Source: a virus. From it: a DNA stretch of 64,000 nt. The notes under the pieces are model-generated. The model was not told the DNA's origin. It worked only from the letters and a program-made list of their open reading frames with translations, and did no database searches. The stretch covers positions 1-64,000 of IMG/VR virus record IMGVR_UViG_3300027749_000063; one strand, given 5' to 3'. Of the stretch, positions 36,763 to 64,000 are shown in pieces. The position numbers were made by a program, and so were the translations under genes. Positions within the stretch are counted from its first letter, which is position 1. The number at the start of each line of letters is the position of its first letter.

Positions 36763-38649
36763 ATGTCTACTTGTATTGATTGCTACGGAACTACTTCTAT
36801 TGACCCTTGTGGAACTACAGGGTGTATCTCTACCAACTATGGTAAGTGTATAACCTATTCAGGTGCAGATCTTTTTTGTGCTACAGGTGCTGTTAAAACT
36901 TTTAGTGTAACTGGAGTAGCAGTAAACCCTACTGTACTTACTGAGTACACTGTATCTCCAACAGGAGGAGCAGGAAGTTCTTTAAGTGTTAAGGTAACTC
37001 GTACTCCAGGTTCTACTACCTACACAGTGACTTTGGTTTCTGCAGGTTCAGGCTATGCTATTAATGACGTAGTAACTGTTGCAGGAGCTAGCTTAGGGGG
37101 AACTACTCCAGCTAATAACTTATCTTTAGTTATTACCGCATTGGTTCCTTTAATCTCTTCAGTAAATACTATTGACGAAGTTATTGCTAATATTAACTCT
37201 AGACTATGTACTTTAACTTCTGTAGGATTAAACTACTCAGGATTTAACTATGCTTGTCTACGTGTAGGCGGTAACTTAAATAGTATAGGAACTTCTATTA
37301 CAACTGCTCAACAGTTTGCTGAATCTACTTCTGCTGCTTTGTGTTCTTTGAATACTAGAACTCTTGCATTAGAAACTCCTACGTTTGTTGCTGCTTGTGT
37401 ATCTGGGATTACTTCAGGTACTTCTACTCTAAGTCAAATCTTGACTGCTTATGGAACTAAAATATGTTCTATTAACACAAGTGTAGATATGACTGGGGTT
37501 ACAAACAATCCTTGTATCTCGTACTCATTTACTACTAAGCCTTCTACCACTGTAGTTTCAGATTATATTAACTGGGTCACAACTAACATGTGTGGCATGT
37601 TCCAGACTTTAAATACAAGTATTGTTACTGTAACTACTGCAGCAGCTGCTCTTAAGACTTATATCTCAGGGGGGTCTGCTGTTCCTGCATCTATTAATAC
37701 TTCTTGTATTTCAGGAGGATCTGCTACAAGCACTTTGAGTGCAGCAGCTATCTTGTTTACTAGTCAGATTTGTGCAATCAACACTACTTTAGCTTCTATC
37801 CCTGCTTCTAGTTATGCTCTAACTTGGGCTACAAACTTTGGATCAACTCCTTACTATGGTTATACTTTTGGTTTTACTAACAGTTCAGATACTTTAGCTA
37901 ACCAGTTAGGTAAGATTGTTTCTACCTTAGGTAGATTAAAACTTAAGTTAAACTCTGGTGACTTTGTTGCTACTAGTGATTCAGATGGATTAAATGTAGC
38001 TTTGGCTTCAGGAGTAAGATTTGCTTGTTCTCAATTGAGTACTTGTTCTATCTCTGCTTTATCTGATGTAACTACAAGTTCTCCTGCAACCTACCACACT
38101 TTGTTCTGGAATGGTTCTGAGTTTGTAAACAAAGAACTTATCTTTACTTCAACAGGAGGAACAGTAACAGTTACTCGTACTGATAACGTAGGTAATGTAA
38201 CTATTAATTTAGAGTCTTCTGGATCAAGTGGAACAGCTACAGCTGCTACTTTGGTTGCAGGAACTTTGACCAATGCAGTAGTTGCTGCTTCGTTAAGATT
38301 CCCAAGTGGATCTTTACCTAGAGTATCTAAGTTTGGTAAAACAATAACAATTGTAGGAAGTTTGGCTGTTAATGCTACAGGTTCTTTTGCTTGGGCACAT
38401 GGTCAATCTTTAATATTTGCAACAGTTCCTGCAGGATATCTTCCTTTATACCTTCCAGTATTTAACGTATTGATTCTTAAGTATACAACAACTTCAGGTA
38501 CTAACTCGACTGTTGTATATCAAGGAGTAGCATACATAAATAGTAGTGACTTAAGTATAGAGTTGAATAACCCAGCAAGTCCAATATCTTTATCTGTTGG
38601 AGAATCTCTTGAGATATTTATCGGAGGAAATTCTTACGCAGCAATTTAA
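36763..38649 (+). CDS. Cys-rich fibre/spike-like protein
   Basis: CITYSG N-motif, repeated helical IC segments, LSDV...LFWNG knob, beta-rich C-terminus. Confidence 0.65.
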   Translation: MSTCIDCYGTTSIDPCGTTGCISTNYGKCITYSGADLFCATGAVKTFSVTGVAVNPTVLTEYTVSPTGGAGSSLSVKVTRTPGSTTYTVTLVSAGSGYAINDVVTVAGASLGGTTPANNLSLVITALVPLISSVNTIDEVIANINSRLCTLTSVGLNYSGFNYACLRVGGNLNSIGTSITTAQQFAESTSAALCSLNTRTLALETPTFVAACVSGITSGTSTLSQILTAYGTKICSINTSVDMTGVTNNPCISYSFTTKPSTTVVSDYINWVTTNMCGMFQTLNTSIVTVTTAAAALKTYISGGSAVPASINTSCISGGSATSTLSAAAILFTSQICAINTTLASIPASSYALTWATNFGSTPYYGYTFGFTNSSDTLANQLGKIVSTLGRLKLKLNSGDFVATSDSDGLNVALASGVRFACSQLSTCSISALSDVTTSSPATYHTLFWNGSEFVNKELIFTSTGGTVTVTRTDNVGNVTINLESSGSSGTATAATLVAGTLTNAVVAASLRFPSGSLPRVSKFGKTITIVGSLAVNATGSFAWAHGQSLIFATVPAGYLPLYLPVFNVLILKYTTTSGTNSTVVYQGVAYINSSDLSIELNNPASPISLSVGESLEIFIGGNSYAAI

Positions 38650-40797: not shown

Positions 40798-43700
40798 ATG
40801 GAGAATAAAATTAATCAGAACATTGCTGGGTTAAATTTAGATTCAGTTAACTACCAGATAAAGGAGAACATGATTACGTTTGCTTTAAACGCAAATGTTC
40901 AATCTCATGATGGTAACTCAACTACCTATACTAATGAGCCTTCCAATCAGATCTGTTATAATTTTATCAATTTATATCCTGGATTTAAAATTACAGGAAC
41001 CTTAAGTATTACTGAGCAATCTAAGTTAGTTGTTTTTTTAGCACACCCTGATGGACGTTCTCTTATTGGAGTAGTTACAGATTTAAGAAAAGACTGTACT
41101 AGTTTGGTAGAAAGTGAAACAGACTGTGGTTGTGTATCAGGTACTGCACTATCTAGTACGGTAGACTTAGCTGAGGGTTGTTGTACTTTTACTCCTTTAG
41201 TTGTAGACAACTGTTGTGATTGTTCTGACTGTTACGAATACTCAGTAGAAAGCATTTCTAAATCTCCTTACATAGTAAATTATATAGACTGTTCTGGATT
41301 AGAAACTAATATTACTTTTCCTGCAGGACAGGTAGGAGTATTTAGAGCTAGAAAAGATAAGTACACATTAACTTCAGATACAAGTATTGTTTCAGAACGT
41401 TTTATATCTCAGGGAATCTGCGTACCTAAGTCTAGTAAGTGTTGTTTAGGTTTGAGTCCGGACTATCCTGTATACTCTGAATATCGTATAGATAATTGTA
41501 ATACTAAAATATATTTTATTGCTAAGAACATTACTCCTAGATTCTTCTCTTTAGAGGAACCTTATGGTAAAGATCAATGTGGAATATTGTCTGATTGTCT
41601 TTCTGATTCTTGTGAGAGACTAAAATTGTTTCCTGACTTCTGTCAAGCAGACATATATCCTACCTCAATTAACTCAGGTGGATCATTAAAGGGAGGAGTT
41701 TATTCCTTCTCTATTGCTTATGCAGATGAGAAAGGAAAAGAACTTACTGACTATGTAGATTTTTGTAATCCTATTCCAATTTTTGAGAGGTACATTACAG
41801 AACAAACTGAGTATGTAACTTCTAAATCTATTAGAGTTGCTATAGAACACAGTACTGCTATCTTTAATTACTTTAACTTAGTAGTAGCTGAAAACATAAA
41901 TGAAGTAACTACATACCAACTAGTAGGTACTTACAGAGTTAATCAGACTACTAACAAAGATTCTTTAATCTATACAGGAGAATACACTTCTACATTCTCT
42001 TCTATTGTTCCTCTTATTCGTACTCCTCATTATACTAGTGCAGGAATTATTGATAAGCAAACTGACATGTTAATGTTAGCGGATTTAACAGAAACGCCTA
42101 AGTATAACTTTCAGTTACTTGCAAACAATATTAAGTTACGTTGGGAAACAGTGGAGATGCCTGCTGATCAAAAGTTTGATTACTCTAATCCAGAGATTGC
42201 TTATTTCTTCCGTACATATCAAAGAGATGAAGTTTATCCATTTGGAATTAAGTTTAGATTAAAGAACGGAAAGTATACAGATGTATTCCATATTCCAGGA
42301 AGAGTTGCTTCTGGTTCTGATACAGCTACCTTATCAAAAGGATCTAGTTTAGATGTATTTACTGTTGCAAACGATTGTACTGTAGAGAAAGATCTTCCTA
42401 CTTGGAAAGTATATAACACAGCTACTGCAGGTCTCACACCTCCTAGTAATGAACCTTCTATACAAGAAGCTCAGTACAGTTGTAAGATTACTGTAAAAGA
42501 CTCAGGAGAGTTTGCTTATTGGGAATCTACTGAGACTTATCCTTGTTACACAGAAGTATGGGGAGCATTAGCTGAACAACCTATAAGATTTCATAAGTTT
42601 CCTGAGAATGCAATTTCTCACATACATGCAGACAGTAAAGATTTAATTTACCCTATTGGAGTACGTATCCTTGAGAGTTTGTTTGAAGCAGACTTAAATA
42701 CATTTACAGTATACGATCCTTTAAACACTTATGGTAATAATCAGATTCCTGTTAAGGAACTTATCTGTGGCTACGAGTTAGTAAGAGGTAATCGTGTAAA
42801 CAATAAATCAGTTATTGCTAAAGGTCTTATTTACGATGTCGGAACTTTTGAAGATGTTAAATCAGGTAAGAAGTTTTACTACCCTAACTATCCTTACAAC
42901 GATATTAGGGAAGATGGTTATATTAAATCTAACCCAGATTGGTACAATGCAGCAGATAGAGGAGAAAAGAATAATAGCATTCCAGGAATGAGTCTCCACA
43001 AAGGATTCAATACTATTGGATCTCGTTATACATTCCACTCTCCTGATACACATTTCCAACTTCCTAAAATTGGTACAGAACTTAAAATAGAAACTTTAGA
43101 GTTTGGTAAAGTACAGGGAAAGTTTGTTCCTGTATTAGATCATCCTCAATATAAGTTTTTAACTAAAGCTGACTATGCTTTGTCTGCTGTTTTATCAAAT
43201 GCACTTTCTTTAGCTTTTGAAAGCAAAGCTACGGTTGCTGACGCAGGAAGTATTATTAAGACAGATGCACTTTCAATTCTAACTAACAATCAAATATTTA
43301 TAGATCTGATTGAGAGACTAATTCCTAATACAAACTTTGCTTATCAGTTTAACTCCGTAGGAAAGTATACAAGTTTTAGACCTATAACTACTAGAGGAAA
43401 CAGAAGACGTTTCTTGGATATTGGACTTTATGCTAATGATAAGATAGTAGAGTTAAATGATGACAAACCTTTACATAATCGTCTAAGAGAAACTTCAGTT
43501 TATCTCAAGACTAGTGCTGGATTCTCTCAAGAGTTTACGTCTATCCAAGATAACACTCGTTACACAATAGGAGAAAAAGGATTAGAAGATAATCCAGAAA
43601 AAGTAACAGAAAGCGATACAAGAGCTTACTACGCTTCTATTAAAAGAGAATTCCCAAATCAGTATGGACAGATAGAAAACATTAGATATATTTCTACAGG

Positions 43701-45804
43701 TTATATCTGTGATGTAACTCTTAGTCTAGGAGGTACTGCAAAGATTCTTAAGAAGTATTATCCTGCTTTTGGTGGAGATACTTATATTAATAAGTTTGCT
43801 CTTAAACGTAAACACTCTTTTTTTACTCGTAATTTAGCTAATCTTCCTGCTAAAGTAAATAACGTTCCTTTTGATTATTGGTTGTTTCCTAACTTAGGAT
43901 ATCCTACTTACTACATAGGAGAGTCTCCAGAAGAACTGGATGCTGCTATTATCTCAAGTGCAGTAACAGGAATTGGAGCAGCAGCAGCTACCGCAATAGC
44001 TGCCGCACTTACAGGAGCAGCTAGTGGAATTGCTCTTAATGCTATTATTTCTGGAGCACTTGGTACTATTTATAGCTTGTTTGTAAAGAAAAATAACTTA
44101 GATGCAGATCCTCAAGAGTTCTTCTATCAGAAAGGATTCTTCTACACAGCATCTTATGGTATTCCAGTATTCTACGTAGAGTCTGACATTAACGTAGACT
44201 TACGTCATGGAAGAAATGACCTAGAAGAAAACTTCTACCCTAATGTAGGAGATGGTATTCCTGACGATTGGTTGCATGAAGTAAACGTACCTATTAAGTT
44301 TGATAACTTCTACAGCTACAACGCTACTTACTCTGCACAGAACTTAAGTCCTAACTTCCCTTATAGATTAAAGTATCCTTCTTTAGAGTGTCTTACTTAT
44401 CATCAGAATAGAGTTATCTATTCTGATCCTGCAAATGCTTCTAACTATCTTTCAGATGCTTGGAGAGTATTCCGTTCTGGTAATTTTTATGATTTTCCTA
44501 AGCAAGGAGGTCGCTTAATAGATTTGAATGCAGGAGAGAACGAAAGAGTATATGCTAGGTTTGAAAATACAACTAAAGTATACAACTCTCGTATTACACT
44601 AAGCACTACTTCGCCTTATCAGTTAGAGATTGGTAATGCAGAAATGTTTAAACAAAAACCTGTAGAACTTTCTAAGACAGACTTAGGTTATATAGGAACT
44701 CAACACAAAGCTTATGTTAAGTGTGAGTATGGAACATTCTGGGTAGATGCTAAGCGTGGTCACATCTATCAAATTACAGGAGATGGATTTAACGAGATTA
44801 AAACAGAGAATAACTTTAACTGGTTTAAAAATAATTTACCTTTTAATATCCTTAAGAACTTTCCTGATGCAGACATAGATAATCCACAGTCAGGATTAGG
44901 TATTGTAATGGGATGGGATGAAAGATACGAAAGAGTATTTATTACTAAGTTAGATTATTTAGTACGGAAAGATCTAGTAGGTATTATAACTTACGAAGAT
45001 AGAAAGTTTTACTACCAAGAAATAAACTTAAGGATAGAAGTCCAGTTAACAGATCCTACTTACTTTGAGAATAAGTCTTGGACAGTTGCCTACTCTCCTA
45101 AACTTAAAAACTTTATTTCATTCTATTCTTTCCTTCCTAACTTCTTTGTTCCTTTGTTAGGTCATTTCCAAACTATTATCAACACAGGAACAGGTTCAAG
45201 TCTTTGGAACCATAACCTTTCTGTTTATACTTATCAGACTTATTACGGAATCTTGTACCCTTATATTCTAGAGTATTGTGTAAACTCTTTTCCAGTAGCT
45301 TCATCTATTAACTCAGTAACTATCTTAGAAGATATCCAAGAGTACTATTCAGACTATGAGTACTATTCTTTAGGAACCACAAATAATACTAACTTAGCAA
45401 ACTTTACTAAGGCTATTATTTATAATAAAGAACAGTCTTCTGGAGTTATTAAGTTGATTCCTGAGATCTTTGGTAACACAAGACAAAAGATAACCTATCC
45501 TAGAATGACAGCAACAGGCATAGAAGCGCTTATCTCTCGTAGAGAACACGTGAGTACCTTCAATGGATTTTGGAACGTTGCAGCGCAAGGAAATGGACAA
45601 CCTTTATGGTCTACTCAGTGGAGTGACTTAGTAACTCAATATCCAATTGATAAAGTTCCTAATACAAAGAGTGTAAGACCTGTGTCTGTATCTTACCAGA
45701 AGAGTAAAATTAAATCAGACTTTGCTAGAATTAGACTAATACAAGATGCTTACTCTAGATTTAAGTTTATCAATACAATCCAAATAACACAAACCAATCC
45801 ATAA
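40798..45804 (+). CDS. tail stabilization / muzzle protein
   Basis: 1668 aa; GLNLD, YQRDEVYPFGI, FHIPGR, IRFHKFP, FGGDTYI, SWTVAYS...FISFYSFLP. Confidence 0.85.
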   Translation: MENKINQNIAGLNLDSVNYQIKENMITFALNANVQSHDGNSTTYTNEPSNQICYNFINLYPGFKITGTLSITEQSKLVVFLAHPDGRSLIGVVTDLRKDCTSLVESETDCGCVSGTALSSTVDLAEGCCTFTPLVVDNCCDCSDCYEYSVESISKSPYIVNYIDCSGLETNITFPAGQVGVFRARKDKYTLTSDTSIVSERFISQGICVPKSSKCCLGLSPDYPVYSEYRIDNCNTKIYFIAKNITPRFFSLEEPYGKDQCGILSDCLSDSCERLKLFPDFCQADIYPTSINSGGSLKGGVYSFSIAYADEKGKELTDYVDFCNPIPIFERYITEQTEYVTSKSIRVAIEHSTAIFNYFNLVVAENINEVTTYQLVGTYRVNQTTNKDSLIYTGEYTSTFSSIVPLIRTPHYTSAGIIDKQTDMLMLADLTETPKYNFQLLANNIKLRWETVEMPADQKFDYSNPEIAYFFRTYQRDEVYPFGIKFRLKNGKYTDVFHIPGRVASGSDTATLSKGSSLDVFTVANDCTVEKDLPTWKVYNTATAGLTPPSNEPSIQEAQYSCKITVKDSGEFAYWESTETYPCYTEVWGALAEQPIRFHKFPENAISHIHADSKDLIYPIGVRILESLFEADLNTFTVYDPLNTYGNNQIPVKELICGYELVRGNRVNNKSVIAKGLIYDVGTFEDVKSGKKFYYPNYPYNDIREDGYIKSNPDWYNAADRGEKNNSIPGMSLHKGFNTIGSRYTFHSPDTHFQLPKIGTELKIETLEFGKVQGKFVPVLDHPQYKFLTKADYALSAVLSNALSLAFESKATVADAGSIIKTDALSILTNNQIFIDLIERLIPNTNFAYQFNSVGKYTSFRPITTRGNRRRFLDIGLYANDKIVELNDDKPLHNRLRETSVYLKTSAGFSQEFTSIQDNTRYTIGEKGLEDNPEKVTESDTRAYYASIKREFPNQYGQIENIRYISTGYICDVTLSLGGTAKILKKYYPAFGGDTYINKFALKRKHSFFTRNLANLPAKVNNVPFDYWLFPNLGYPTYYIGESPEELDAAIISSAVTGIGAAAATAIAAALTGAASGIALNAIISGALGTIYSLFVKKNNLDADPQEFFYQKGFFYTASYGIPVFYVESDINVDLRHGRNDLEENFYPNVGDGIPDDWLHEVNVPIKFDNFYSYNATYSAQNLSPNFPYRLKYPSLECLTYHQNRVIYSDPANASNYLSDAWRVFRSGNFYDFPKQGGRLIDLNAGENERVYARFENTTKVYNSRITLSTTSPYQLEIGNAEMFKQKPVELSKTDLGYIGTQHKAYVKCEYGTFWVDAKRGHIYQITGDGFNEIKTENNFNWFKNNLPFNILKNFPDADIDNPQSGLGIVMGWDERYERVFITKLDYLVRKDLVGIITYEDRKFYYQEINLRIEVQLTDPTYFENKSWTVAYSPKLKNFISFYSFLPNFFVPLLGHFQTIINTGTGSSLWNHNLSVYTYQTYYGILYPYILEYCVNSFPVASSINSVTILEDIQEYYSDYEYYSLGTTNNTNLANFTKAIIYNKEQSSGVIKLIPEIFGNTRQKITYPRMTATGIEALISRREHVSTFNGFWNVAAQGNGQPLWSTQWSDLVTQYPIDKVPNTKSVRPVSVSYQKSKIKSDFARIRLIQDAYSRFKFINTIQITQTNP

Positions 45805-46598: not shown

Positions 46599-46876
46599 TG
46601 TTTGTCCCAGGGGTTAACGGTTCTATAATTGCAAATTCTAATGCACTTACAGGTTCAAGACTTAAGGGTGCGTACAAGAATTCTAAGAAATTTGCTAAAG
46701 GAGGTAAAGCCTCTGACGATAAACAAATGGTTAATGGAGTAGCAAGTATTCTACGTAGAGTAAAAGATCCTAAGAACAGATTGCAATTAGCTAATCAACT
46801 TTCAAAGCAATTCAATAGAGAAAAAGTAAAGTATGACTTAGCTTCTTTTTTAAATAAATCTAAAGTAAAGAAATGA
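46598..46876 (+). CDS. basic hypothetical protein
   Basis: 92 aa, overlapping both neighbours. Confidence 0.6.
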   Translation: MFVPGVNGSIIANSNALTGSRLKGAYKNSKKFAKGGKASDDKQMVNGVASILRRVKDPKNRLQLANQLSKQFNREKVKYDLASFLNKSKVKK

Positions 46877-47445
46877 AACAGATGATAAAACGCAAAGATG
46901 GATCTTATTCACAACGAGGTTTGTATGATAACATCCGTGCAAAGAGAGGTTCTGGAAAGAAGCCTACTCCAGAGATGCTTAAGCAAGAACGTAAGATTAA
47001 ACGTGAAATGGCTGATGGTGGTAAGATGCCTACAGCTGTTGCTAAAGCAAGATTCGTAGCAGCTAATAAAGGAAATGTATCTGAAGCTAGACAAGATGCT
47101 TCTAAGTACGGATACAAGTTTATGTCAGGAGGAAGACTTAAGATGGCTTACATGGCTAAAGGAGGAAACATTTCTCACACAACTAAAGGAGCAGGTGCTA
47201 ACTACCGTCCTACTAAGTCAGGAGCAGGTATGACTCAAAAAGGAGTTATGGCTTATCGTAGAGCTAACCCTGGATCTAAATTAAGTACAGCAGTAACAGG
47301 TAAAGTTAAAGCAGGTAGCAAAGCAGCTGGTCGTAGAAAATCTTATTGTGCTCGTTCATTAGGACAGTTACGTGGATCTAAACAATCTACACAGAATGAT
47401 CCTAACAGCAGAATACGTCAAGCACGTAGACGCTGGAAATGTTAA
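46873..47445 (+). CDS. basic protein with DUF6321-like C-terminal domain
   Basis: GAGMTQKG..AYRRANPGSKL...RRKSYCARS...DPNSR...RRWKC. Confidence 0.6.
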   Translation: MKQMIKRKDGSYSQRGLYDNIRAKRGSGKKPTPEMLKQERKIKREMADGGKMPTAVAKARFVAANKGNVSEARQDASKYGYKFMSGGRLKMAYMAKGGNISHTTKGAGANYRPTKSGAGMTQKGVMAYRRANPGSKLSTAVTGKVKAGSKAAGRRKSYCARSLGQLRGSKQSTQNDPNSRIRQARRRWKC

Positions 47446-51884: not shown

Positions 51885-54800
51885 ATGCCAAACGATCCTA
51901 AATACCCTACACTTGCTCCTAACGTAGGAAGATTTTCTTCCAAAACAGTAAAGTTAGGAAATACTGCCCAGTCTCAAGCTTTGGCAAACGAAGGAATTAT
52001 TGCTCAAAATAATTCTATCTTTCTTGCTCAACAAAAACAACAACAGGAAGCACTTAGAAGTAAAGCAGCTAACGATGCTAAGATTGATGGAGCATTGACA
52101 ACTGCAGCACAAATTAATTTAGAAAGCGTAGGATCACTTAGACCAGGAATGTTCTTTTCTCCTCCGTCTACTAAAGGAACAATGGGTCCTCAGTTGACTA
52201 CAGAGTATCAGTTAGTTAACCAAGAGAAAAATAGATCTAAACAAATTCTTACAGAAAGCTTTGGAGAGAAAGATCCTATCTCAGAAGAGTTAGATAAAAA
52301 ACTAGGTCAAGCAGAAGATGAATTAAATACTTTTACTTCTAGAAAACAACAAGGTTCTGCTATTACCAGTGTAGGAGCAGAAGCAGGAGGAGGAGCAGGA
52401 GGATTTTTACAAGACTTTATTGCAGAGAAGGCTTTAGGACAAGACACTAGTTTAAATAAAGAACAAGAATTAAAGAATACTATTGCTAATCTTAAACAGA
52501 GTCAAGCAACTATAAACTCTTTTAAATCCGATCTACAACTAAAGAAATTTACTACAGATTATCTTACTGAGTTAAAAGGACAAGGTAAGAAGTTTGGAGA
52601 ACAAGAAGCAGCAACTCTAATGCAGAAAGCAAAAGAGATTACAGCAAACCAAAGACATCTTACCAGAGGAGACGATTTGTATGATGACAACACATACAAT
52701 ACTTATATAAAAGACTTTCAGGGAAAGAATGATTTCTTTGACTGGAGACATACAGACATAAGTTTAGGTAATGCAATAAACTCTGTTTACAATCAAGTAA
52801 AATCTGCACAAGGTCCTGAGAGAGAAGAGTTGGTAGGAGTTCTTAACCAATTACAAGGTTATAGTAAAAGACATGAGGGTTCTAACAAAGACGCTTACGA
52901 TCATTACTACGGGGGATCAAAACAATACTACAAAGAAAATACTCCTTGGAAAACTTATTTAGGTAACCAAATTGGAGGGGGAGTTGGAGAAGGATTATAC
53001 AATGCTTTAGGTACAATAGTTAGTACTTCTCAAGATCTACTAGGATACCACTCTGCTGCATTTGCTTCTAGACAAGCTAAGGATAAATACTTTTCAGCTG
53101 ATATGCTTCAAGCGGACTTAGATGGAGATGGTAGGATTACAGAAAGAGATCAAGACATTAATGGTCAATATCAGTACATTGGAAAGAATGTTACTTATAT
53201 AAAAGCAGGAGATGGACCAGATAAAAAAGGAAAGGGTGATGTAGGTTTTATTGGGCAATCTGTTTTAGGAGCTTCTGTAAGAACTCTTGCAGAAATGGCA
53301 CCTACTTTATTACTTACTAGGGGTATGATGGCAGCAGGTGCTGGCATGCGAATAGCAACCTTTGCTCCAGTTGCTTTAACTTCTACTATTCGTTCTTATG
53401 AAGAGAATCGTAAGTGGTTCAAAGATAAAGGCACTGCAGCTTTAGTAAGTGGTATTCAAGGAATTATTGAAGGAGCAACTGAATCTATTGTTCCAGACAT
53501 TAGTTACTTTATGGGTAACAAGTCTTTAGGAACAAAAGCTTTAAACAATAGTAGTAGAAAATATTTTACAGCTCAAACTTTAGTTCCTGAGTTTACAACA
53601 CTTTCTAATGCGGGTAAAAACTTTCTTTTAGGAACAGTCTATGCAGGAAAAGCTTTAGGTAAACAAACTTTACAAGAAGGTGCTGAAGAAGAACTTTCGA
53701 TGTTTGCTAACTATATCTTAGATAAACAACTTGAAACAAAAGATGATCTTTATGGAAAGAGAGAACAGGAGTTAGATGATAGCAGTGTAGAAGGATTCTT
53801 TAAGTCAGTAGCAAAAACATTTGTTGAGTCTGCAGCTGCAGGATTACTTATGTCTGGTACTGCTATAGGAAGTTCTCGTACAGAAGATAGGAACTATATG
53901 CGATTTAACATTGCAAATAATCCTGACCAATTTAAAACAGAACTAAAAAGCCAACTAGAAGCAAAGAAGATTACACAAGATCAGTATAATAAAGGAATTT
54001 TGGAGACAGGTCGCTTAAGTCAATTACAAGAACAAGCGACAAGTACTATGATGAATCTAGTAGACTCAGAAAATCTATTAGAAGATCATGACAAACAATA
54101 CGAATACTTTTCTAAATTACTTACTAGAGATGATCTATTAACTAAAGTAGATTACAATGCTTTGTCTGAAACAGAAAAAGCAGAATACGTTAAGAAAGTA
54201 GAGACTGTAGAAAAAGAGATAGATAGCTTTGAAAATTCAGCAAGACAGTATGCAAACATGCCTAAAGAAGAGAAAGAAGGCATACTGGCTAAAATGTTTC
54301 AGAAGAATCTTGAAACTGTAAAGAACACAAACAATCCTGCAGTACTTGCAAAAAACTTAAAAGCCATTACAGATGCAATTGAAATAGGAGAGAAAACAGG
54401 TAAAGGTTCTCAAGTAGCAATCTCAGGAAGACAGCAAGTAAGAGAAGCTTTAGTAGGACAGATAGAAAGACTTCAAACTGTAGAGGATAATGGGAACACT
54501 GTATATGAGAATCAATTATTAAATACTCCTATAGAATCTGCTGGAGAGTCTATGCAGATAAGTAATGCTGTTAAGTTAGAAAACCTATTGACTGAGAATA
54601 AAAACTTAGTCAGCCCTGCAGTAAGACAACAGTTACTTGGTAAGATTGCTCAGGCTTCTAGTGTTGCAAGAGAAAGACTTAATAGCCTTTCTAAGAAAGA
54701 ACAGAAGAAAGTTATTGCTAGAGAATTAGCAAGAGTAGAATTAATATACCCTGGTACTGCTTTTAATAAAGAAAGATTAAAGACATTATTTGGTCAAGAC

Positions 54801-56597
54801 TTAACTCAAGAAGAACACTCAGAAGTAATACAGCAAGCTTCAGTTATAACTGCTAGAGAGAAGGAAACTCTTAAGGACGAAGACATATTACAACCTCAAG
54901 ACGAGGATATAACATTAAACTCTTTACTTAAATCTATTGAAGCTACTCCTGCAGAGATTCAAGTAGAGAATGAGATGGGTAATGTAGAAACAAAAAGAAA
55001 TGAAGAAAGAGTTACTAGGGAGCGTAGAGCTGTTATGTCTATTCCTAGAGCTAAATCTAAAGAACAAGCAAGAGGTAGAGTTAAAGCTATCTTTAAGGTA
55101 CTAGGTTATGATACTGAACAAATAAATAAAGCTTTAGAAGATCTTAACAAAGTATTTGATAATCAAGAAGTTACAAGTCCAGGTGAAATCTATGAAGGAT
55201 TTCTTCGCTTCCTTGACTCAAACTTATTACGTTCTTTACCTGATAGAGCTATTACAACTTCAGAAGATATATTAGCTGAAGAACCTATAGTAACAGAAAC
55301 AGTAACTCCTCCTATAGTAACTGAAACACAGACTTCTGTTGTATCTGAAGAGGATGCTTTATTTGGAACTAATGAAGAGATTGATGCTCGTAGAGGAGCA
55401 GCAGAAGTTGTTGTAGAAGGTCCTACAATAGATGCAGCAGACGAAGTGATAACTGAAACTCCTATTCCTGTAGTGGATCCATTAGATGGTTTAGAAGTAG
55501 TTGCTGCAAAGAGTATAGATTCCCCTAATCTAGTGGCAACTGTTCCTACAGTATTTACAAATAGTAATGCAGTAGTACAAAGTTCTATTATGAGAACGAT
55601 CAGTCAATCCTTAGAGTCTTTTAATCTAAAAGTAGTAGATATGTTCTCTTTTATAAGAGAGACTTTAGGAGAGTCAGCTATGCCTACCTTAGAGAACATC
55701 TATAATAATCTAACAGAGGCGCTTAAAACAAACGACACAGAAGCTATTGCTAGACTTAAAGAAGAGTACTTAGCTGTATTTAGTGGTAGTACATTTGCTA
55801 ATGAGCAGTTAGAATATATCTGGAAAGCACAATACGTAAACGGAAAACCTGATGCTTCCATTCCTTTCCAAGACTTAGCTTATGTTACCAATGGACAGTT
55901 TGCTACAGCATACCAAGGAGACGAAGTAATTGTTACTGCAGTAAAAAAAGAGACAGGAGAAGTGTTTACTTATAATGCAACTGTAACAGGCAAAGTAAAT
56001 GAATCAAACCAAATCGAAGTAAAGACTCGTAAGGGTAATATAGTTTATATTAAGAAGAGCAACCTCCAAACTATTGCTCCTAGAACAATAAGTGTAAGAG
56101 CAAACTTTAATCAAACTAACTCTATTATGATGACTGCAGTAGATAGAACTACTGGAGAGATTGCTAAGTTTAATTCTAACGGAAAAAGAGATGCTCAAGG
56201 AGATACACAGTTAAATACATTTGTTCCTAGAGAGAATGACGCTATGAAAGAAGTAAGAAAAAGTCTTGCTTCAGGTCAACCTGTTGCTCACACTCTTCCT
56301 ATACATGCAGGAGCAAGAATCAATAGTGCTTTTGCTTATGAAAAGGGAAAGACTTCTGTTTACTTAACAGCTTCAGTTACAGGAATTAACACTGACATAC
56401 AAACAGTAGCACCTGTAGAATTAGATGTAGTATCTGAAGAAATAGTAGAACCACAAGTAACTTCTACCTTAAGTAAAGACGAATTAGACATTCTTTCTTT
56501 TGATACTAGTCAGATAGACAACCTAGAGATTTCTGAAAATCCTATAAATCAAAGTGATGCGAAAGAGATAGAGGATGCAGCAAGCTGTAAACTATAA
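51885..56597 (+). CDS. large ejection protein with membrane-interacting segments
   Basis: 1570 aa; Gly/Ala hydrophobic helices, EGAEEE motif; precedes the RNAP. Confidence 0.65.
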   Translation: MPNDPKYPTLAPNVGRFSSKTVKLGNTAQSQALANEGIIAQNNSIFLAQQKQQQEALRSKAANDAKIDGALTTAAQINLESVGSLRPGMFFSPPSTKGTMGPQLTTEYQLVNQEKNRSKQILTESFGEKDPISEELDKKLGQAEDELNTFTSRKQQGSAITSVGAEAGGGAGGFLQDFIAEKALGQDTSLNKEQELKNTIANLKQSQATINSFKSDLQLKKFTTDYLTELKGQGKKFGEQEAATLMQKAKEITANQRHLTRGDDLYDDNTYNTYIKDFQGKNDFFDWRHTDISLGNAINSVYNQVKSAQGPEREELVGVLNQLQGYSKRHEGSNKDAYDHYYGGSKQYYKENTPWKTYLGNQIGGGVGEGLYNALGTIVSTSQDLLGYHSAAFASRQAKDKYFSADMLQADLDGDGRITERDQDINGQYQYIGKNVTYIKAGDGPDKKGKGDVGFIGQSVLGASVRTLAEMAPTLLLTRGMMAAGAGMRIATFAPVALTSTIRSYEENRKWFKDKGTAALVSGIQGIIEGATESIVPDISYFMGNKSLGTKALNNSSRKYFTAQTLVPEFTTLSNAGKNFLLGTVYAGKALGKQTLQEGAEEELSMFANYILDKQLETKDDLYGKREQELDDSSVEGFFKSVAKTFVESAAAGLLMSGTAIGSSRTEDRNYMRFNIANNPDQFKTELKSQLEAKKITQDQYNKGILETGRLSQLQEQATSTMMNLVDSENLLEDHDKQYEYFSKLLTRDDLLTKVDYNALSETEKAEYVKKVETVEKEIDSFENSARQYANMPKEEKEGILAKMFQKNLETVKNTNNPAVLAKNLKAITDAIEIGEKTGKGSQVAISGRQQVREALVGQIERLQTVEDNGNTVYENQLLNTPIESAGESMQISNAVKLENLLTENKNLVSPAVRQQLLGKIAQASSVARERLNSLSKKEQKKVIARELARVELIYPGTAFNKERLKTLFGQDLTQEEHSEVIQQASVITAREKETLKDEDILQPQDEDITLNSLLKSIEATPAEIQVENEMGNVETKRNEERVTRERRAVMSIPRAKSKEQARGRVKAIFKVLGYDTEQINKALEDLNKVFDNQEVTSPGEIYEGFLRFLDSNLLRSLPDRAITTSEDILAEEPIVTETVTPPIVTETQTSVVSEEDALFGTNEEIDARRGAAEVVVEGPTIDAADEVITETPIPVVDPLDGLEVVAAKSIDSPNLVATVPTVFTNSNAVVQSSIMRTISQSLESFNLKVVDMFSFIRETLGESAMPTLENIYNNLTEALKTNDTEAIARLKEEYLAVFSGSTFANEQLEYIWKAQYVNGKPDASIPFQDLAYVTNGQFATAYQGDEVIVTAVKKETGEVFTYNATVTGKVNESNQIEVKTRKGNIVYIKKSNLQTIAPRTISVRANFNQTNSIMMTAVDRTTGEIAKFNSNGKRDAQGDTQLNTFVPRENDAMKEVRKSLASGQPVAHTLPIHAGARINSAFAYEKGKTSVYLTASVTGINTDIQTVAPVELDVVSEEIVEPQVTSTLSKDELDILSFDTSQIDNLEISENPINQSDAKEIEDAASCKL

Positions 56598-56640
56598 TAA
56601 TTAAGTTTTAAAAGTATCAAACTAAAGTATATTTGTAAAG

Positions 56641-59600
56641 ATGGCAAAAATAAACTGTCCTGATAGGGGTAATAAAGATTTCTTAGATTTAAGTAATGCA
56701 CTAGGCAGTGATGCTTTAGCTAAATTTATATGGTATAAGAATAGCAACCTTCCTTTGAATCAAACAGAGGACGCAGAAGGAAACATTGTACCTAGTGAAG
56801 TATATGATCGTATATTAAATGAAGTTGCAGAAGGTAATGAGGCACAAGCTTTAGCTATGGTCTCTACTATGTATCTTCCTAGTTTCCAAGAAAAGTACAG
56901 AGAAGAAGATCCAGCCTTTACAGTTGACTACATAAAACAAGAAGTACAAGATCATCAAGACAAAGCAGCTAAGAGACAAGGACAACTTATAGAGGAAAAG
57001 ATAATTCCAGGTACAAAAACTCTTTACATTCAAACACCTGAAGGAGACATTGTATACACTCAAGAAGAGGGTAAGGAAATCTTTGACAGCTTAGAGTATT
57101 TATTGGCTACAAAGAAAAGTTGGAAAAGTACTATTGATGCTTTGAAAGAAAGATTCGAAGACATTAGAACTAAAGTAAAAAACTCTACTGTAGATCCTAA
57201 TGTTATAGTTACACCCCAAGATACTCTAGTAGGAAAAAACCTTGTTAACATTTTAAAGAACTGGCCTCAAGTAAAAGCTTGGTATCTAAGTCAAGAATCT
57301 GTATTTGGATTAGAAGCAATAGATGATGAGGTTAATCAAGAGATAGGTAACAGTCCTTACAATAAGAATGCGCATGACTCAAGTCAGATGGATTTGGCTT
57401 CATCCCAAGTTATCAAACTAGTACAAGCTTTACCTAAGTACAATAAACTAACTACACAAGATAGAAAAGATATTAAGTCAGGTAAGAAAAGTATATCTGA
57501 CTTTCAAGTAATAAGTAACATTACTGGATTTCCTGTAGTAGGGAACTTCTCTACTAACTGGAATGTACTTACTTCAAGTCTATCAGGAATAACTGAATAC
57601 CCTAAAATTCTTGCAGAGTTAGCGGTAGTAGCACAAGAGTATCCACAGTTTAATGATATGGTTTCTTTGCTTCCTGAAGAGGATGTGCAAGACGTAGATC
57701 TAAACACAGCAAACTTTGTAGCTTCTTTTGTACAGACAGTCTCTATGCCAGAGATTCTTGCATACCAACTATCTGTTAAAAAACTTACAGGTTCTACTGA
57801 ATCAAGTAACTTGGTTAGTAAAGTATTCCAACTAGGTACTAGAACAACTGATAACCTAGTTAGATACTTTGATGAGGATTACTTTAAGTCTAATCCTAAA
57901 TACGGAACTGTAAATGACAAAGGTGAGACAGTTTTAAATGTACCTAAGTTATTAGAAGATTTTAGTTACATAAAGAACATCAAACAATTCTTTGCAGGAC
58001 GTAATAAACTTACAAATGAGAAGGGAGATTATACTCCAGAAGGCAAAGAGTTATTACAAGGGATACATAAGTTCTACAATGCCTTAGGTATTATTCCTAC
58101 TAATGCACTTTACCAAAAAGATAAGAAAGCGCTTTATGACTTTTTATCTGATACTACTTTTACTGTAAGAGAACTGTATGACAAATTAGAAGAGAGTATA
58201 GATAACACTTCTATTACTCAACCTTTACAATTTTTAGGTAAGTCACAAGGATCAGGTAAAGCACTAGGACCTAAGTTTGATGCTATTAATGCAGTTGTAG
58301 GATACTATGGTAAATTTGAAAGAGAGTTTGCTTCAGGTTCTTACTTTAACTCTGAAGATAAACTTCAGTACAATAAAGTACAGTACTTCTACCTTACTCA
58401 AGTAACTAATGCTTTAAACTCTGTAAAGAGTTATAACGAACTTATAGCTAAGCCAGAGTTTGCTCACCTTGATGTTAGATTGAATCCTAATATTATAGGA
58501 TCTCTTTGGTTAGAAAAAATGTTTGGTATTACTGTTAAGGATAAAACCTTACCTCAGTTATACAAAGAACTTAATTCAGGTAAACAGTTTCCTAGACTTA
58601 AAACACAGTTTAGTAAACAAGACTTTAAGATTAACATTGTAAACTTCTCAGGAGTTAAGGTTGAAGCAGATTTAAAAGACGGTGTAACTACTACCGAACT
58701 TACTTCTGAAGATAAAATTATACAGGATTTTGCTTCTTTCTTCCAAGAAGGTATGACAGAGAACATCCGCTTTGGAGACAAAGGAACTTCTTATGCTACC
58801 ATGACCTCAGGTAAAGTAGAAGAAAGAATGTACGTACCTTTAGATCCTGCAGTATTAGGTAGTAGTGAAAAGTCTACTGTAGTAGAAAAAGTACTAGCAG
58901 ACCAATTCAAGGCTTACCTAACTTCAGAGGTAGCAAGAGTACTCAACATTCTAAATAGCGATAAGAAGCACGTATACAATACAAAAGGAAAAGAGTTGTT
59001 TATATTCAAAGACATCCTTCCTAAAGAAGATTATGCTGACTTAACTAGTAACGACAAAGCAACTGTTATAGCAGCCTTTACTCGTGTTAGTGATCAATTA
59101 CCTACTCACTTGAGTAAGTACTTTGAAACACAAACTGCTCTCTACAAACAACGTCTAATAGAATCTACACTAGGAGACAAGAGTGCTATTACTGATAACT
59201 CTACTGAACAACAGAAGGATCAAGACTTAGCAAATATGTTAAATGCTTTAAACTTTGCTAATCCTGCCTTGTTTAAAAAGAATAAGATTACTCCACAAAA
59301 CTTAGACTACGTTATAGCTAACTACTTAAAGAATGATTTCATTCATAAGGTAGAGTTTATGAAAGTCTTTGTAGGAGACATTGCTAACTTCCAAGTTAAG
59401 GGAGACTTTCGTGAGGTATTTAAACGTATTCCTTTTACTTCTTCTCCTGGATTTGTATTCCAAGACAATGCTGCTGTAATGGCTTATTTAAATAATAGTG
59501 GGAACACTAATGGTTTATACAAAGCATTAAGAGGAGCAACTCAGAAGTTTCGTAAGACAGTTAGAACAGTTGTCTTTAATGATGTAAATACATTTAGTAA

Positions 59601-62600
59601 AGAAGACTGGCCTACTTACAGAGCAGCTTTAGGACTTCCTGATACATTAGAGTACCAAGAGTATGTCAACTCTCCTAAAGAAGCAGATGCTCAGGGTTTA
59701 GTTAGTTTAGATTTTTATCGTAACTACATACTAGGATTAGGTCAATGGTCTCAAGAACAAGAAAACGCTTACTTAAATGAGATTGAAATATTTAAAATCT
59801 TAAACAAGAAAGATAAAACTGAAGAGGACTATGCAAAGATGCAAGAACTCAAGGACAGTACAAACTATGTAGGATTTCCTCCACTTAAGTTAGGTCACTA
59901 CGGAGCTATTGTAGAGGATCCCAAGTTAACTGCCTTACATAAGTATTCTTTGGCTCCAATGATTCCTTCTATGATTGCAGGAACTCAATTAGAGGAGTTG
60001 AATAAGCAAATGATTGCTAAGCAAATTGACTATGCAACATTTAACTCAGGTTCTAAAGCTTCTAACTATGGAGATGCCTTAGACTTTTATGTACCAGATG
60101 CAGACAATGCAGGTACACTTAAAGTAAACCCTAGTATTAAAGGAAACAACATTACGTCTTTACACTTAAAGAATCTTAAACAACAGCAATACATTGCTCC
60201 TAAATTTAAGAATGAGGCTACACTTTCTACACAGATGGTTAAGCTTATCTTTGGTGACTTTTTTACTGCAGGAAACCTAAGCAACTTGAATGCAGGTACA
60301 GCTAAGACAGTCCAAGATTTATACAAAGAGTACGATCAAGTGCTTGGTAATATCATTGGAATAGAAGAAGCAAACTTATTTAATAAGATAGGTTTGACAA
60401 GAGATTCTAGTGGAGCTATATTAGGATTTGATAATAAGAAGTTCTATAACTTCCTAAAGAGTGAGATGGAAAAAAGAGACACTAGTCAGTCTCTTAGGCG
60501 TTACATCCAATTAGATGCAGCAGGAAACTTAAAATATCCCTTAGACGCTACTAAGAATAGAGCAGAGATAGAAAACATCTTATTGTCTATTATTAATAAC
60601 AAGATTATCTCACAGAAACTTCACGGAGAGTCTTACATCCAGATGGCTTCTACAGCTCAGGGAAGTACTAGATTTACTAAACCTACTGAAGAACAGATTA
60701 AGAAGTTTGGAATTAATGGCTTAAGATTCTATCGCAAAGGGGTAAATGGTACAGAGCCTGCAGATGTTAAGATTGCGTTTAATCCTAAGAAGCATGCTCC
60801 TCTATTAAACTTAACCTTTAAAGGACAAAAGATTGGTACAGTAGAAAGACTTAATAAAATTCTAAAGTCTAATAACAAAGAAGCAACTGATTGGGTAGAT
60901 CAACATACAAAACAACTTACTTTAGTAGGAGTACGTATTCCTGTACAGGGTTTAAATTCTATGGAGTATTTTAGAGTAAGAGAGTTCTTATCTACTAGTG
61001 CAGGTCCTGTAATTGTAGTTCCTCCTCAAATTATTGTTAAGGCTGGTTCTGACTTTGATATAGATAAGTTAACTATGTTTGAACCTAAATTGGATCAAAA
61101 TGGTCAATTAATTAATGATGCAGGTTTTACATTAGAAAATTATAATAAAGCATTACCAACTAAAGCTGAGTCTGTACGAATATTAAAAACTTTAAGAGCA
61201 GCTAAACAATCTCTAGTTGAGACCTTAGAAACTATTCCTTCTTATTTAAACAAGAAAGAATTAGAGAAAGAGATAAAAGAACTTAACGAATCTATGTCTT
61301 CTACCGAGGAGAACATAGGCAAGTTTGCTAATACAAAAATGAACTTAGAAGAACTTCAGGCTTTAATGTCAGAAGGATCTACTGAGAAAGAAGACTTGAT
61401 TAAACAAAAGATAGAAGAAGTTAAAGCGTTAAGTAAGTCTGGAGAATTAGCGGGTGCATTATCTGCATTGAAAGCACTCAAAAATGAAATTGGAGATTAC
61501 TCATCTGCTGTGTCTAACGTAAACAACTTTAAGGACGGTAACGTTAACAGACTTATAGATGTGTTTACTTCAGTTATCTCAATGCCTGAGAACTATAACA
61601 AGTTAGTTCTTCCTAATACAAACACAATCTTAACAGAGATCTCTGACAAGTTAAATCAGAATCCAATTACTTCTACTGGTTTGTTTAGTCCTCTTACATC
61701 TAATCGTGTATATGGAGACAATATCGAGTCTAAGAAAGCTTTGGGTATTGACGCTAAACTTAACACTATGCAGAAGGAGTTCCAAATTGCAGGCTTAGTT
61801 TACAATAACGAACTCTCTGGATTTTATCCTTTTGATGCAAACAGAGTAAACGGAGGTATTAGCTTAGGAGAACAAACTCTTACAGATGGAACTGTTATCT
61901 CTAGGGTAATCAGTGAAACAATTAACGGGCACGTAGATATTGCAAAAGAAGATTGGATTATTCTTTTAGGTTTAGATAAAGCTAAGACTCCTCTTTTTCA
62001 TGCTATGATTCTTGCAGGTACTCCTGTAAGAACTGCTTTAGATTTTTTGAACAAGCCTTTAGTTAAGTATGTACTTAAAGAATCTAACAGAGGTCTGTTG
62101 TTTAAACAAATTGGAATGAGAAGAGGAAGACCAGTTAGTATGACATTTAAGAATGTAATGGTGCAAACATTAAAAGACTTAAATGTATCCGACAACACTA
62201 AGTCTTACATTAATATTGCAATAGATACTTTTAGTAATAAAGATGTAGTTAAGTTTAAACCTTTGATGATGGATTTAAATCGTTTCATCACTGAAGGTGG
62301 AGTTAACAATGAATCAGATAAACAACAACTAGAAGATTTGTTTAACTTGTATATAATTAAAGAGTTACAAGGATCAGTTCAACAGTTAACTAGTTTAGTA
62401 GATTACAACACTAAGAGATTCCAAAACTCCTATCAAGTAAAAGCAGATGCAATTACTTACGGCAGAGTAGTAGAAAGTTTTAATAGAGACGGTTTAAATA
62501 AACTTACTCAACAGTCTGCTTTATCTAACTTTAACCAAGCAGGAACAGTTCTTTCCCTCATGCCACAAGTATTTGATGTATCTAATCATCCTTCAGTATT

Positions 62601-63756
62601 AGATGCTATTTCTCAATACACTAATAGAGCAGGAAAATATACTGACGATGACTTAGTAAAAGCATCTAAAAAGATTAAAGACAATTATCTAGTAGCAATG
62701 GTTCAACTTTTTGGTGTAGATCAAACAGGTACTAAGTTACAAGACAAGTTTTTCTCTGCTGCTGGATTGTTTAATAAAACCAATCCTAATAACATAGCAA
62801 AGAAACTTGCTGACCTTACAGAAAAGTATAGTGATCTATCTAAGAATCAGATAATTGCTAACCTTTACACTGCTGAGAATTCGTCAAAGAATATTATATT
62901 TAAGCTTAGAAATGCTAATCTAGATGCTTATCTAGTAGGTGAGTATGAGAAAGCATTTATAGAAGGACTTAATGATGTGAGAGAAGATGTAAGCGAGTTA
63001 TTTAAGAACATTGGTCTGGGTACATTCTTACAGTTTGGCTTTAGCAATAACTCTTATGGCTTATCTCAAGTAATTCCTTACGAGACTTACGTAGACCAAA
63101 CGACTAAAGCAGTAAACAAACTTAAGTTAATGCAGGGGAACAAAATAGTATCTGAACAACTCGCTGGATATATTTCTCAGATGACTTATTTTAATGACAG
63201 CAAAGATGTTCCTACTTTAGTCTTAGATAAGAACGTAGCTAAGAGAGAGCATGAGCCAGACTTTAATGTTAGATTACTTTTGATAGAAGAAAAAATAGAT
63301 AGTGCTCTTAGAGGAATTCTAACTTTCCAAACTAAAAACTATACAAATCTTGAAAATCTTAAGTCTACAAATAGATTCAGAGGACTTCGTATAGAGTTTG
63401 TAGACAAATTATCTACTAGTAAAAATACTCCAGTTGCTATGCGAAACTCTAACGGAGTTATACAAATAGCAGAGAAAGACTTACTTAATAAGTTTAACGA
63501 TAAAGCATGGACTAAGTCAGCTAAACAAAAAGATGACAGTTATTCTACTCCTTTAGCTTCAGATGAGTTTAAATCCTTTGAAGAGTTTTTAACTTTTGCT
63601 TTGATACATGAAGTAAAACATGAGACTATAAAGAAGTCAGAAGACCAAACAATAGGTCAGTACGAAGATCAGATCAATGAAGCAGCTTTAGTTGATCTTA
63701 GAAACAACTACAAGCAAGAAAAGTTTGATGATGTAGTAGATCCATTTAAATGTTAA
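56641..63756 (+). CDS. virion RNA polymerase (crAss-like two-barrel, single chain)
   Basis: ADAQG, PPLK, KYS, SGSK, RIPVQG and GSDFDIDKL (DFDID at 61051-61065); C-terminal HEVKH. Confidence 0.9.
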   Translation: MAKINCPDRGNKDFLDLSNALGSDALAKFIWYKNSNLPLNQTEDAEGNIVPSEVYDRILNEVAEGNEAQALAMVSTMYLPSFQEKYREEDPAFTVDYIKQEVQDHQDKAAKRQGQLIEEKIIPGTKTLYIQTPEGDIVYTQEEGKEIFDSLEYLLATKKSWKSTIDALKERFEDIRTKVKNSTVDPNVIVTPQDTLVGKNLVNILKNWPQVKAWYLSQESVFGLEAIDDEVNQEIGNSPYNKNAHDSSQMDLASSQVIKLVQALPKYNKLTTQDRKDIKSGKKSISDFQVISNITGFPVVGNFSTNWNVLTSSLSGITEYPKILAELAVVAQEYPQFNDMVSLLPEEDVQDVDLNTANFVASFVQTVSMPEILAYQLSVKKLTGSTESSNLVSKVFQLGTRTTDNLVRYFDEDYFKSNPKYGTVNDKGETVLNVPKLLEDFSYIKNIKQFFAGRNKLTNEKGDYTPEGKELLQGIHKFYNALGIIPTNALYQKDKKALYDFLSDTTFTVRELYDKLEESIDNTSITQPLQFLGKSQGSGKALGPKFDAINAVVGYYGKFEREFASGSYFNSEDKLQYNKVQYFYLTQVTNALNSVKSYNELIAKPEFAHLDVRLNPNIIGSLWLEKMFGITVKDKTLPQLYKELNSGKQFPRLKTQFSKQDFKINIVNFSGVKVEADLKDGVTTTELTSEDKIIQDFASFFQEGMTENIRFGDKGTSYATMTSGKVEERMYVPLDPAVLGSSEKSTVVEKVLADQFKAYLTSEVARVLNILNSDKKHVYNTKGKELFIFKDILPKEDYADLTSNDKATVIAAFTRVSDQLPTHLSKYFETQTALYKQRLIESTLGDKSAITDNSTEQQKDQDLANMLNALNFANPALFKKNKITPQNLDYVIANYLKNDFIHKVEFMKVFVGDIANFQVKGDFREVFKRIPFTSSPGFVFQDNAAVMAYLNNSGNTNGLYKALRGATQKFRKTVRTVVFNDVNTFSKEDWPTYRAALGLPDTLEYQEYVNSPKEADAQGLVSLDFYRNYILGLGQWSQEQENAYLNEIEIFKILNKKDKTEEDYAKMQELKDSTNYVGFPPLKLGHYGAIVEDPKLTALHKYSLAPMIPSMIAGTQLEELNKQMIAKQIDYATFNSGSKASNYGDALDFYVPDADNAGTLKVNPSIKGNNITSLHLKNLKQQQYIAPKFKNEATLSTQMVKLIFGDFFTAGNLSNLNAGTAKTVQDLYKEYDQVLGNIIGIEEANLFNKIGLTRDSSGAILGFDNKKFYNFLKSEMEKRDTSQSLRRYIQLDAAGNLKYPLDATKNRAEIENILLSIINNKIISQKLHGESYIQMASTAQGSTRFTKPTEEQIKKFGINGLRFYRKGVNGTEPADVKIAFNPKKHAPLLNLTFKGQKIGTVERLNKILKSNNKEATDWVDQHTKQLTLVGVRIPVQGLNSMEYFRVREFLSTSAGPVIVVPPQIIVKAGSDFDIDKLTMFEPKLDQNGQLINDAGFTLENYNKALPTKAESVRILKTLRAAKQSLVETLETIPSYLNKKELEKEIKELNESMSSTEENIGKFANTKMNLEELQALMSEGSTEKEDLIKQKIEEVKALSKSGELAGALSALKALKNEIGDYSSAVSNVNNFKDGNVNRLIDVFTSVISMPENYNKLVLPNTNTILTEISDKLNQNPITSTGLFSPLTSNRVYGDNIESKKALGIDAKLNTMQKEFQIAGLVYNNELSGFYPFDANRVNGGISLGEQTLTDGTVISRVISETINGHVDIAKEDWIILLGLDKAKTPLFHAMILAGTPVRTALDFLNKPLVKYVLKESNRGLLFKQIGMRRGRPVSMTFKNVMVQTLKDLNVSDNTKSYINIAIDTFSNKDVVKFKPLMMDLNRFITEGGVNNESDKQQLEDLFNLYIIKELQGSVQQLTSLVDYNTKRFQNSYQVKADAITYGRVVESFNRDGLNKLTQQSALSNFNQAGTVLSLMPQVFDVSNHPSVLDAISQYTNRAGKYTDDDLVKASKKIKDNYLVAMVQLFGVDQTGTKLQDKFFSAAGLFNKTNPNNIAKKLADLTEKYSDLSKNQIIANLYTAENSSKNIIFKLRNANLDAYLVGEYEKAFIEGLNDVREDVSELFKNIGLGTFLQFGFSNNSYGLSQVIPYETYVDQTTKAVNKLKLMQGNKIVSEQLAGYISQMTYFNDSKDVPTLVLDKNVAKREHEPDFNVRLLLIEEKIDSALRGILTFQTKNYTNLENLKSTNRFRGLRIEFVDKLSTSKNTPVAMRNSNGVIQIAEKDLLNKFNDKAWTKSAKQKDDSYSTPLASDEFKSFEEFLTFALIHEVKHETIKKSEDQTIGQYEDQINEAALVDLRNNYKQEKFDDVVDPFKC

Positions 63757-63767
63757 AATAAGAAGAC

Positions 63768-64000
63768 ATGGCAACTTGTAACGTAAGAACAACAAACAAA
63801 GAGTATATGGTTAGTAAGGGAGCCCTAGAGAATGGGTCTGCTAAAGTAAAAAATGAACGTCTATTTGATGTGCATAATGCAGAGATAAGAGATGCAGCAA
63901 ACCAACGCTATAACCTAAAGACTGAAGAACTTCCTTTCTCTAAGGCAGTAAGAGATATTCCTAGAAGTGGTAGAACAGCTTCTAATTATTTCATAGAGTG
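63768..64000 (+). CDS. next large virion protein, 5' partial
   Basis: ATG at 63768 (MATCNVRTT...), open to the end of the window. Confidence 0.65.
   Translation, partial: MATCNVRTTNKEYMVSKGALENGSAKVKNERLFDVHNAEIRDAANQRYNLKTEELPFSKAVRDIPRSGRTASNYFIE

Follow-up and report, generated by a model that had tools for sequence, protein, structure and literature searches.

Terminal cysteines of giant cargo proteins in a crAss-like phage point to a possible head-to-tail disulfide chain through the virion RNA polymerase

A cargo block with cysteines at its junctions

In the human gut, no phages are more abundant than the Crassvirales. How podophages move megadalton protein cargo, here a 270-kDa RNA polymerase, through a narrow tail, and in which order, is a standing question for this group. 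We analysed the cargo genes of virus record IMGVR_UViG_3300027749_000063 (99,219 bp, 84% complete), whose first 64 kb (positions 1 to 64,000) form the stretch of DNA referred to below as the window. Four successive genes, designated P1 to P4, specify proteins in which cysteine residues are found only close to the ends that face another member of the row.

P1, the first member (51885..56597, + strand; 1570 amino acids, aa), contains a sole cysteine, Cys1568, which is the third residue from the C-terminus (AASCKL) and is encoded by a TGT codon at 56586..56588. P2, the virion RNA polymerase (56641..63756, + strand; 2371 aa), has exactly two: Cys6 (MAKINCP; TGT at 56656..56658), in a predicted coil leader ahead of the first helix, and Cys2371 (DPFKC; TGT at 63751..63753), the final residue. 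P3, a small adaptor of 169 aa (63768..64277, + strand, extending past the end of the window at 64000), has only Cys4 (MATC) and Cys167 (ELNCNL). P4 (64312-70341, beyond the window; 2009 aa) has only Cys3 (MSC). Altogether, the four proteins contain 6 cysteines in 6119 residues, distributed in gene order as C, N-C, N-C and N, and all six are positioned 1 to 6 residues from a junction-facing end. Conditional on the cysteine counts, the probability of such a placement is about 4e-13. The mean cysteine content of window open reading frames (ORFs) of at least 150 aa is 0.79%.

An earlier note on this DNA had reported the single cysteine near the end of P1, the cysteines at both ends of P2 and the MATC start of the ORF that follows, and had judged this confinement unlikely to arise by chance. 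The ORFs verify all of these features, and the placement probability agrees with the judgement. The same note had traced a chain of three members in gene order; these three stand, and the full record adds a fourth, P4.

By sequence, P2 belongs with phi14:2 gp66 in one family of virion RNA polymerases. Residues 882-1482 align with gp66 at 25% identity (tblastn, E 2e-14), and a profile built from the P2 family matches PDB entry 6VR4 (6vr4_A) with an E of 3.1e-44; the single P2 sequence gave no match among PDB sequences, only the profile reaching 6VR4. The catalytic GGDFDIDK segment carries the DxDxD motif, and D1471, D1473 and D1475 are invariant in 23 diverse homologs. The gene belongs to a crAss-type structural module, downstream of terminase, portal and major head protein genes. 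P4 is related to phi14:2 gp65 (24% identity, E 1e-16), while P1 yielded no BLAST match to phi14:2 gp67 and resembles this protein and crAss001 gp47 in position only. Packaging into the virion and injection with the DNA have been shown in the literature for the phi14:2 and crAss001 counterparts; by analogy, both are predicted for P2 of this uncultured phage.

In an alignment of the N-terminal 300 residues of the 23 diverse P2 proteins, no column but Cys6 is invariant. In an AlphaFold2 (AF2) model of this region, residues 1-11, including Cys6, are coil and a confidently predicted helical domain begins at residue 12. A Foldseek search of the model against the PDB returned nothing at E <= 0.001, neither 6VR4 nor gp26 of cyanophage A4, a protein considered below. 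The P3 model has a folded N-terminal half (modest confidence) followed by an acidic disordered tail (residues 102-169) that ends with Cys167. The P3 family is narrow, with four representatives at 50% identity. One variant of 876 aa (P0187) retains Cys4, Cys874 and both terminal segments around a large insert; thus, the middle of the adaptor appears to be freely variable. BLAST comparison of P3 with the C-terminal 400 aa of P2 from a related lineage (L010) was not significant. Precomputed annotations place additional Pfam domains (PF13532, PF08719, PF06414 with PF13671, PF18760, PF12694 and PF25176) in many homologs of the virion RNA polymerase (P0015, P0016, P0027, P0028, P0051, P0080, P0094 and others), which suggests that variable enzymatic passengers are co-injected with the polymerase.

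Conservation of the cysteine layout in split and fused genes

Almost without exception, the best 120 P2 homologs (2200-4150 aa, core identity 33-96%) contain two cysteines and no more, one at residue 3-7 and the other among the final 10 residues. Clades differ in their terminal peptides but keep the cysteines. The sole cysteine lies at -3 or -4 from the C-terminus in 36/36 P1 homologs from the database, and Cys3 is the only cysteine in 26 of 29 P4 homologs. Eighty loci surrounding P2 homologs were dereplicated at 80% core identity, leaving 58 lineages. Adjacent gene pairs in these lineages have both a C-terminal and a facing N-terminal cysteine in 105 cases, neither in 88 and a single one in 15 (Fisher p 2.5e-40, a value that overstates the support and is not a true probability because the lineages are related and non-independent). 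Proteins of at least 1000 aa in the same set contain 223 cysteines in 381,436 residues, with 192 of the 223 falling within 12 residues of an end: N-terminal ones at positions 3-6, C-terminal ones at -1 to -9. Internal cysteines amount to 0.008% of these residues, compared to 0.79% for the window ORFs. With cysteine so far below the proteome background, the cargo giants match the cysteine-suppressed ejection proteins of phages. Both cysteine codons are used in the relatives (TGT 192 times, TGC 31 times), at variable offsets from the start or stop codon. The residue following the N-terminal cysteine is most often proline, with no conserved His, Cys or Asp nearby.

Judging from these sequences, the rule applies throughout the phage order, and the ortholog comparison that the earlier note had proposed finds the terminal cysteines conserved in the 58 lineages as well as in two cultured phages, phi14:2 and crAss001. 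In phi14:2, the only cysteines are residue 1797 of gp67, residues 3 and 2179 of gp66 and residue 3 of gp65, and all three proteins have been verified in the virion by mass spectrometry. In crAss001, gp47 has only Cys2339 (of 2341 residues), gp50 has Cys5, Cys1334 and Cys2404, and gp49 has Cys5. The homologs of P2 in these phages are gp66 and gp50, and that of P4 is gp65; the rule is common to all three genomes, the chain having three members in the two cultured phages (gp67-66-65 and gp47-50-49) and four in this genome, where the 169-aa adaptor is included. The literature searched contained no account of terminal cysteines in the crass RNA polymerase block or of links between its proteins. In two gut Suoliviridae, L098 (cr4_1; 5382-24270) and L099 (cr6_1; 4998-22888), the junction pair is kept (LNCKGK followed by MICPNL or MIICPNF); the annotated cargo genes of cr4_1 and cr6_1 contain in-frame stops (recoding).

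The number and arrangement of chain genes vary among lineages, providing a set of natural experiments. All whole blocks are closed (25/25), meaning that the first member lacks an N-terminal cysteine and the last lacks a C-terminal one. Whole blocks have 1, 2, 3 or 4 members, and a five-member block was seen with its left end cut off. It follows from the closed blocks that a block of one to five members has 2 x (members - 1) terminal cysteines. In seven proteins in which P1 and P2 are fused (3733-4798 aa), the former junction is free of cysteine and the few internal cysteines are in the polymerase core. A complete P1-P2-P4-like polyprotein of 5002 aa (L058, 4748-19756) has no terminal cysteine and two internal ones (2130 and 2533). 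Conversely, lineage L036 has proteins of 583 and 1852 aa that are colinear with an unsplit 2352-aa protein of L069: the split pair has an SCKL end and an MSKC start, whereas L069 has no cysteine at the corresponding site. Further small members correspond to detached ends of P2 or P4 and likewise come with a new cysteine pair each. Some crAss-like phages have been described in which three cargo proteins are fused into a giant polyprotein (Drobysheva et al. preprint); fused and split forms have the same domains in the same order, the fused ones being joined by peptide bonds and devoid of the junction cysteines. On the sequence evidence, a cysteine pair appears to replace the peptide bond in the split forms.

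The rule is also kept where chain genes are not contiguous. In crAss001, gp47 is on the + strand, and gp50 and gp49 are on the - strand. Small ORFs with N-termini resembling GIY-YIG proteins, likely homing endonucleases, are inserted precisely between chain genes in L022 (11711-13050) and L065 (10024-10641). The flanking cysteines are unchanged despite these insertions, which account for apparent exceptions to the rule. We give the variation in member number, fusion, fission and non-adjacency more weight than the counts.

Proposed pairing of the terminal cysteines and alternative explanations

In the pre-ejectosome of cyanopodophage A4 (Anabaena phage A-4L), a disulfide between gp27 Cys1715 and gp26 Cys5 was seen by cryo-electron microscopy (cryo-EM; PNAS 2025, PMC12002296); it is part of an ordered, five-fold ring of gp27 and gp26 that sits above the portal. 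We computed from the A-4L genome (KF356198) that Cys1715 is the only cysteine of gp27 (1717 aa) and Cys5 the only one of gp26 (1114 aa), the adjacent downstream protein. The arrangement is like that described above: an upstream giant with its cysteine three residues from the C-terminus and a downstream protein with its cysteine near the N-terminus, both capsid-internal ejection proteins. Thus, gp27-gp26 of A4 is a structurally proven instance of the cysteine signature. The two systems differ in that A4 has a single link between two proteins, neither of them an RNA polymerase, while here three serial links would join four proteins; across the crass order the implied links per block vary from 0 to 4. 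Neither blastp nor phmmer matched A4 gp26-29 to the crass giant proteins, so A4 is taken as a mechanistic parallel and not as a family member.

Suppression of cysteine in ejected proteins also has precedents. DEV-type virion RNA polymerases contain 0.00075% cysteine versus 0.865% in the proteome, a difference attributed to the oxidising periplasm that they have to cross (PMC11445570), and T7 gp15 and gp16 have zero cysteines. The giant ejected proteins of the Schitoviridae (N4 gp50, DEV gp71-73) and of T7 are near cysteine-free, as they are here; however, they lack conserved terminal cysteine pairs, whereas here the purge spares exactly the junction-facing ends. The block would be of a known kind, combining the disulfide-linked pair of A4 with the cysteine suppression of N4-like and T7 ejection proteins. 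What would be new is a serial chain that runs through a virion RNA polymerase and is conserved across a phage order, with, in this genome, four members that include a small half-disordered adaptor, and the 2 x (members - 1) count of terminal cysteines.

Because the A4 disulfide carries the same signature, a head-to-tail disulfide chain is the best reading of the terminal cysteines, and we assign to such a pseudo-polyprotein a probability of roughly 0.6. The pairing of each C-terminal cysteine with the N-terminal cysteine of the next protein, as the earlier note had it, gains strong support from conservation, from fission and fusion, from crAss001 and from the A4 cryo-EM precedent. In the mature extracellular virion, the C-terminal cysteine of each member would form an intermolecular disulfide with the N-terminal cysteine of the next, giving a linear thread, about 6100 residues long, that runs N-to-C throughout. 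The purge of other cysteines would make wrong cross-links impossible, and the short overhangs past each cysteine would keep the junctions thin. The tether would hold the members in fixed order and 1:1 stoichiometry while they leave the capsid sequentially through the tail, their chains partly unfolded, until the reducing cytoplasm of the host cuts the links and frees the polymerase. Split lineages, through disulfides, and fused lineages, through peptide bonds, would then yield the same covalent thread. For crassviruses, the disulfides between chain members, their timing and their role are all inferred, and ordered tail passage with release by cytoplasmic reduction is likewise conjectural. In the AF2 models the junction cysteines lie on a coil leader (P2 1-11) and a disordered tail (P3 102-169), which we count in favour of the chain. 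Structural disulfides do occur in crassvirus virions, as in crAss001, whose authors argued for a partial unfolding of the cargo and for an N-to-C exit of gp45 (PMC10172136). The fullest form of the proposal, a redox-cleavable pseudo-polyprotein of at least 6000 residues that is threaded N-to-C as a single chain, is cut reductively and has an independent origin in a cyanopodophage, is one that we put forward tentatively, with the odds somewhat against it.

If the chain is real, a reversible covalent tether would explain at once the fixed gene order, the interchangeability of split and fused forms and the extreme purge of cysteines. Terminal cysteine pairs would be a general marker from which the linkage of ejected proteins, and their order, could be read in the sequence, and the rule would predict linked virion proteins and their order in uncultured phages.

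The same C-to-N disulfides could instead be staples of a static folded core of the pre-ejectosome type, with no thread and no redox signalling. This is how the A4 bond is placed, inside an ordered pentameric ring above the portal, and the P2 model, with its well-folded helical domain directly after the N-terminal cysteine, would suit such an arrangement. However, crAss001 has no ordered core, its cargo zone being a low-density region (PMC10172136); the cysteines are 1-9 residues from the termini, in coil or in disordered tails; and the uniform C-to-N polarity and the interchange with peptide-bond fusion fit a linear chain better, so that we regard a static core as rather unlikely. It is less probable still that the termini meet but a metal ion, or other chemistry, joins their thiols in place of a disulfide. 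A metal bridge could, unlike a disulfide, form in the reducing cytoplasm during assembly, and a phage oxidase was not found: the Erv1/ALR search gave no match in the record, although it is uninformative, having also missed all control genomes. One thiol per terminus would nevertheless make a poor metal site, with no conserved His, Cys or Asp close by and proline common at the next position; metal binding would not demand a purge that leaves 0.008% internal cysteine; and in A4 the same cysteine pattern corresponds to a disulfide.

Equal numbers of N- and C-terminal cysteines are also expected if the middle members were cyclised N-to-C with an additional link between P1 and P4, and homotypic dimers or polymers can be envisaged as well. 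Yet two-member blocks and A4 permit only an intermolecular C-to-N pair, and it is exactly the two facing cysteines that disappear on fusion and exactly a facing pair that appears on fission. Homotypic pairing would leave the closure of 25/25 blocks unexplained, and a cyclised 2371-aa protein could not traverse a narrow channel single-stranded. The fusions, fissions and closed blocks therefore favour consecutive C-to-N pairing, and we consider these other schemes very improbable. As for chance, a by-product of low cysteine content or a nucleotide motif at starts and stops that happens to encode cysteine, the spacing between genes is narrow (-7 to +86 nt) and an AT-rich genome favours TGT. Against this, the placement probability is about 4e-13 in this genome alone, TGT and TGC are both used at variable offsets, the cysteines of crAss001 are kept with gp47 and gp50 on opposite strands, they remain in place despite homing-endonuclease insertions, and the terminal peptides differ between clades around a constant cysteine. 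The fusion and fission events, the non-adjacent genes and the codon data exclude both chance and a junction motif, and these readings were rejected as having next to no likelihood.

Several points weigh against the disulfide chain itself. Disulfides normally cannot form in the infected cytoplasm, and many crassviruses inhabit the anoxic gut. Neither thioredoxin nor glutaredoxin was found in the 84%-complete record. Since the cytoplasm disfavours disulfides and no phage thiol oxidase or reductase was found, oxidation would need to follow lysis. The gut Suoliviridae cr4_1 and cr6_1 have 6-8 internal cysteines, a purge less strict than that of environmental lineages. The pair statistics are inflated by kinship among the lineages, which makes the fusions, fissions and rearrangements the stronger evidence. 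The A4 bond sits in a folded, static ring with no obvious thread. As for published experiments on crassviruses, the crAss001 study, which ran mass spectrometry on reduced and non-reduced samples, reported nothing on gp47, gp49 or gp50 links, and the work on phi14:2 gp66, a protein isolated and crystallised by itself in dithiothreitol/tris(2-carboxyethyl)phosphine (DTT/TCEP), could not have revealed a bond.

Other structural genes and terminal cysteines of the window

The structural module of the window includes, on the + strand, the genes for the large terminase (24326-26335), the portal (26374-28827) and the major head protein (30151-31680), together with further virion structural protein genes. 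A structural giant of 1668 aa (40798-45804, + strand) is encoded upstream of the row of cargo genes. Directly preceding P1 are two cargo-like proteins without cysteine, C1 (47728..50142, + strand; 804 aa) and C2 (50146..51882, + strand; 578 aa), which are the positional counterparts of crAss001 gp45 and gp46, respectively; in all related loci, upstream proteins of this size are likewise free of cysteine. Neither Pfam nor PHROGs yielded a family for C1, C2 or P1 to P4.

Cysteines at facing ends also occur in three consecutive cysteine-rich structural genes at 35548-38649 (+ strand). The clusters are found at the end of a 168-aa protein (ELDC), at the start and end of a 174-aa protein (MTKCC and CTCC) and at the start of a 628-aa protein (MSTCIDC), and relatives with as little as 43% identity retain them. 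The crAss001 virion has structural disulfides in its tail and in gp57 (PMC10172136), and the three proteins may be the counterparts of the tail ring and hub proteins that disulfides staple in that phage. Upstream of the cargo block, a 190-aa protein (46873-47445, + strand) that matches only PHROGs of unknown function has cysteine as its last residue (RRRWKC); the product of the following gene has none. A 190-aa ORF with a C-terminal cysteine precedes the cargo block in L005, L007, L008 and L010 as well.

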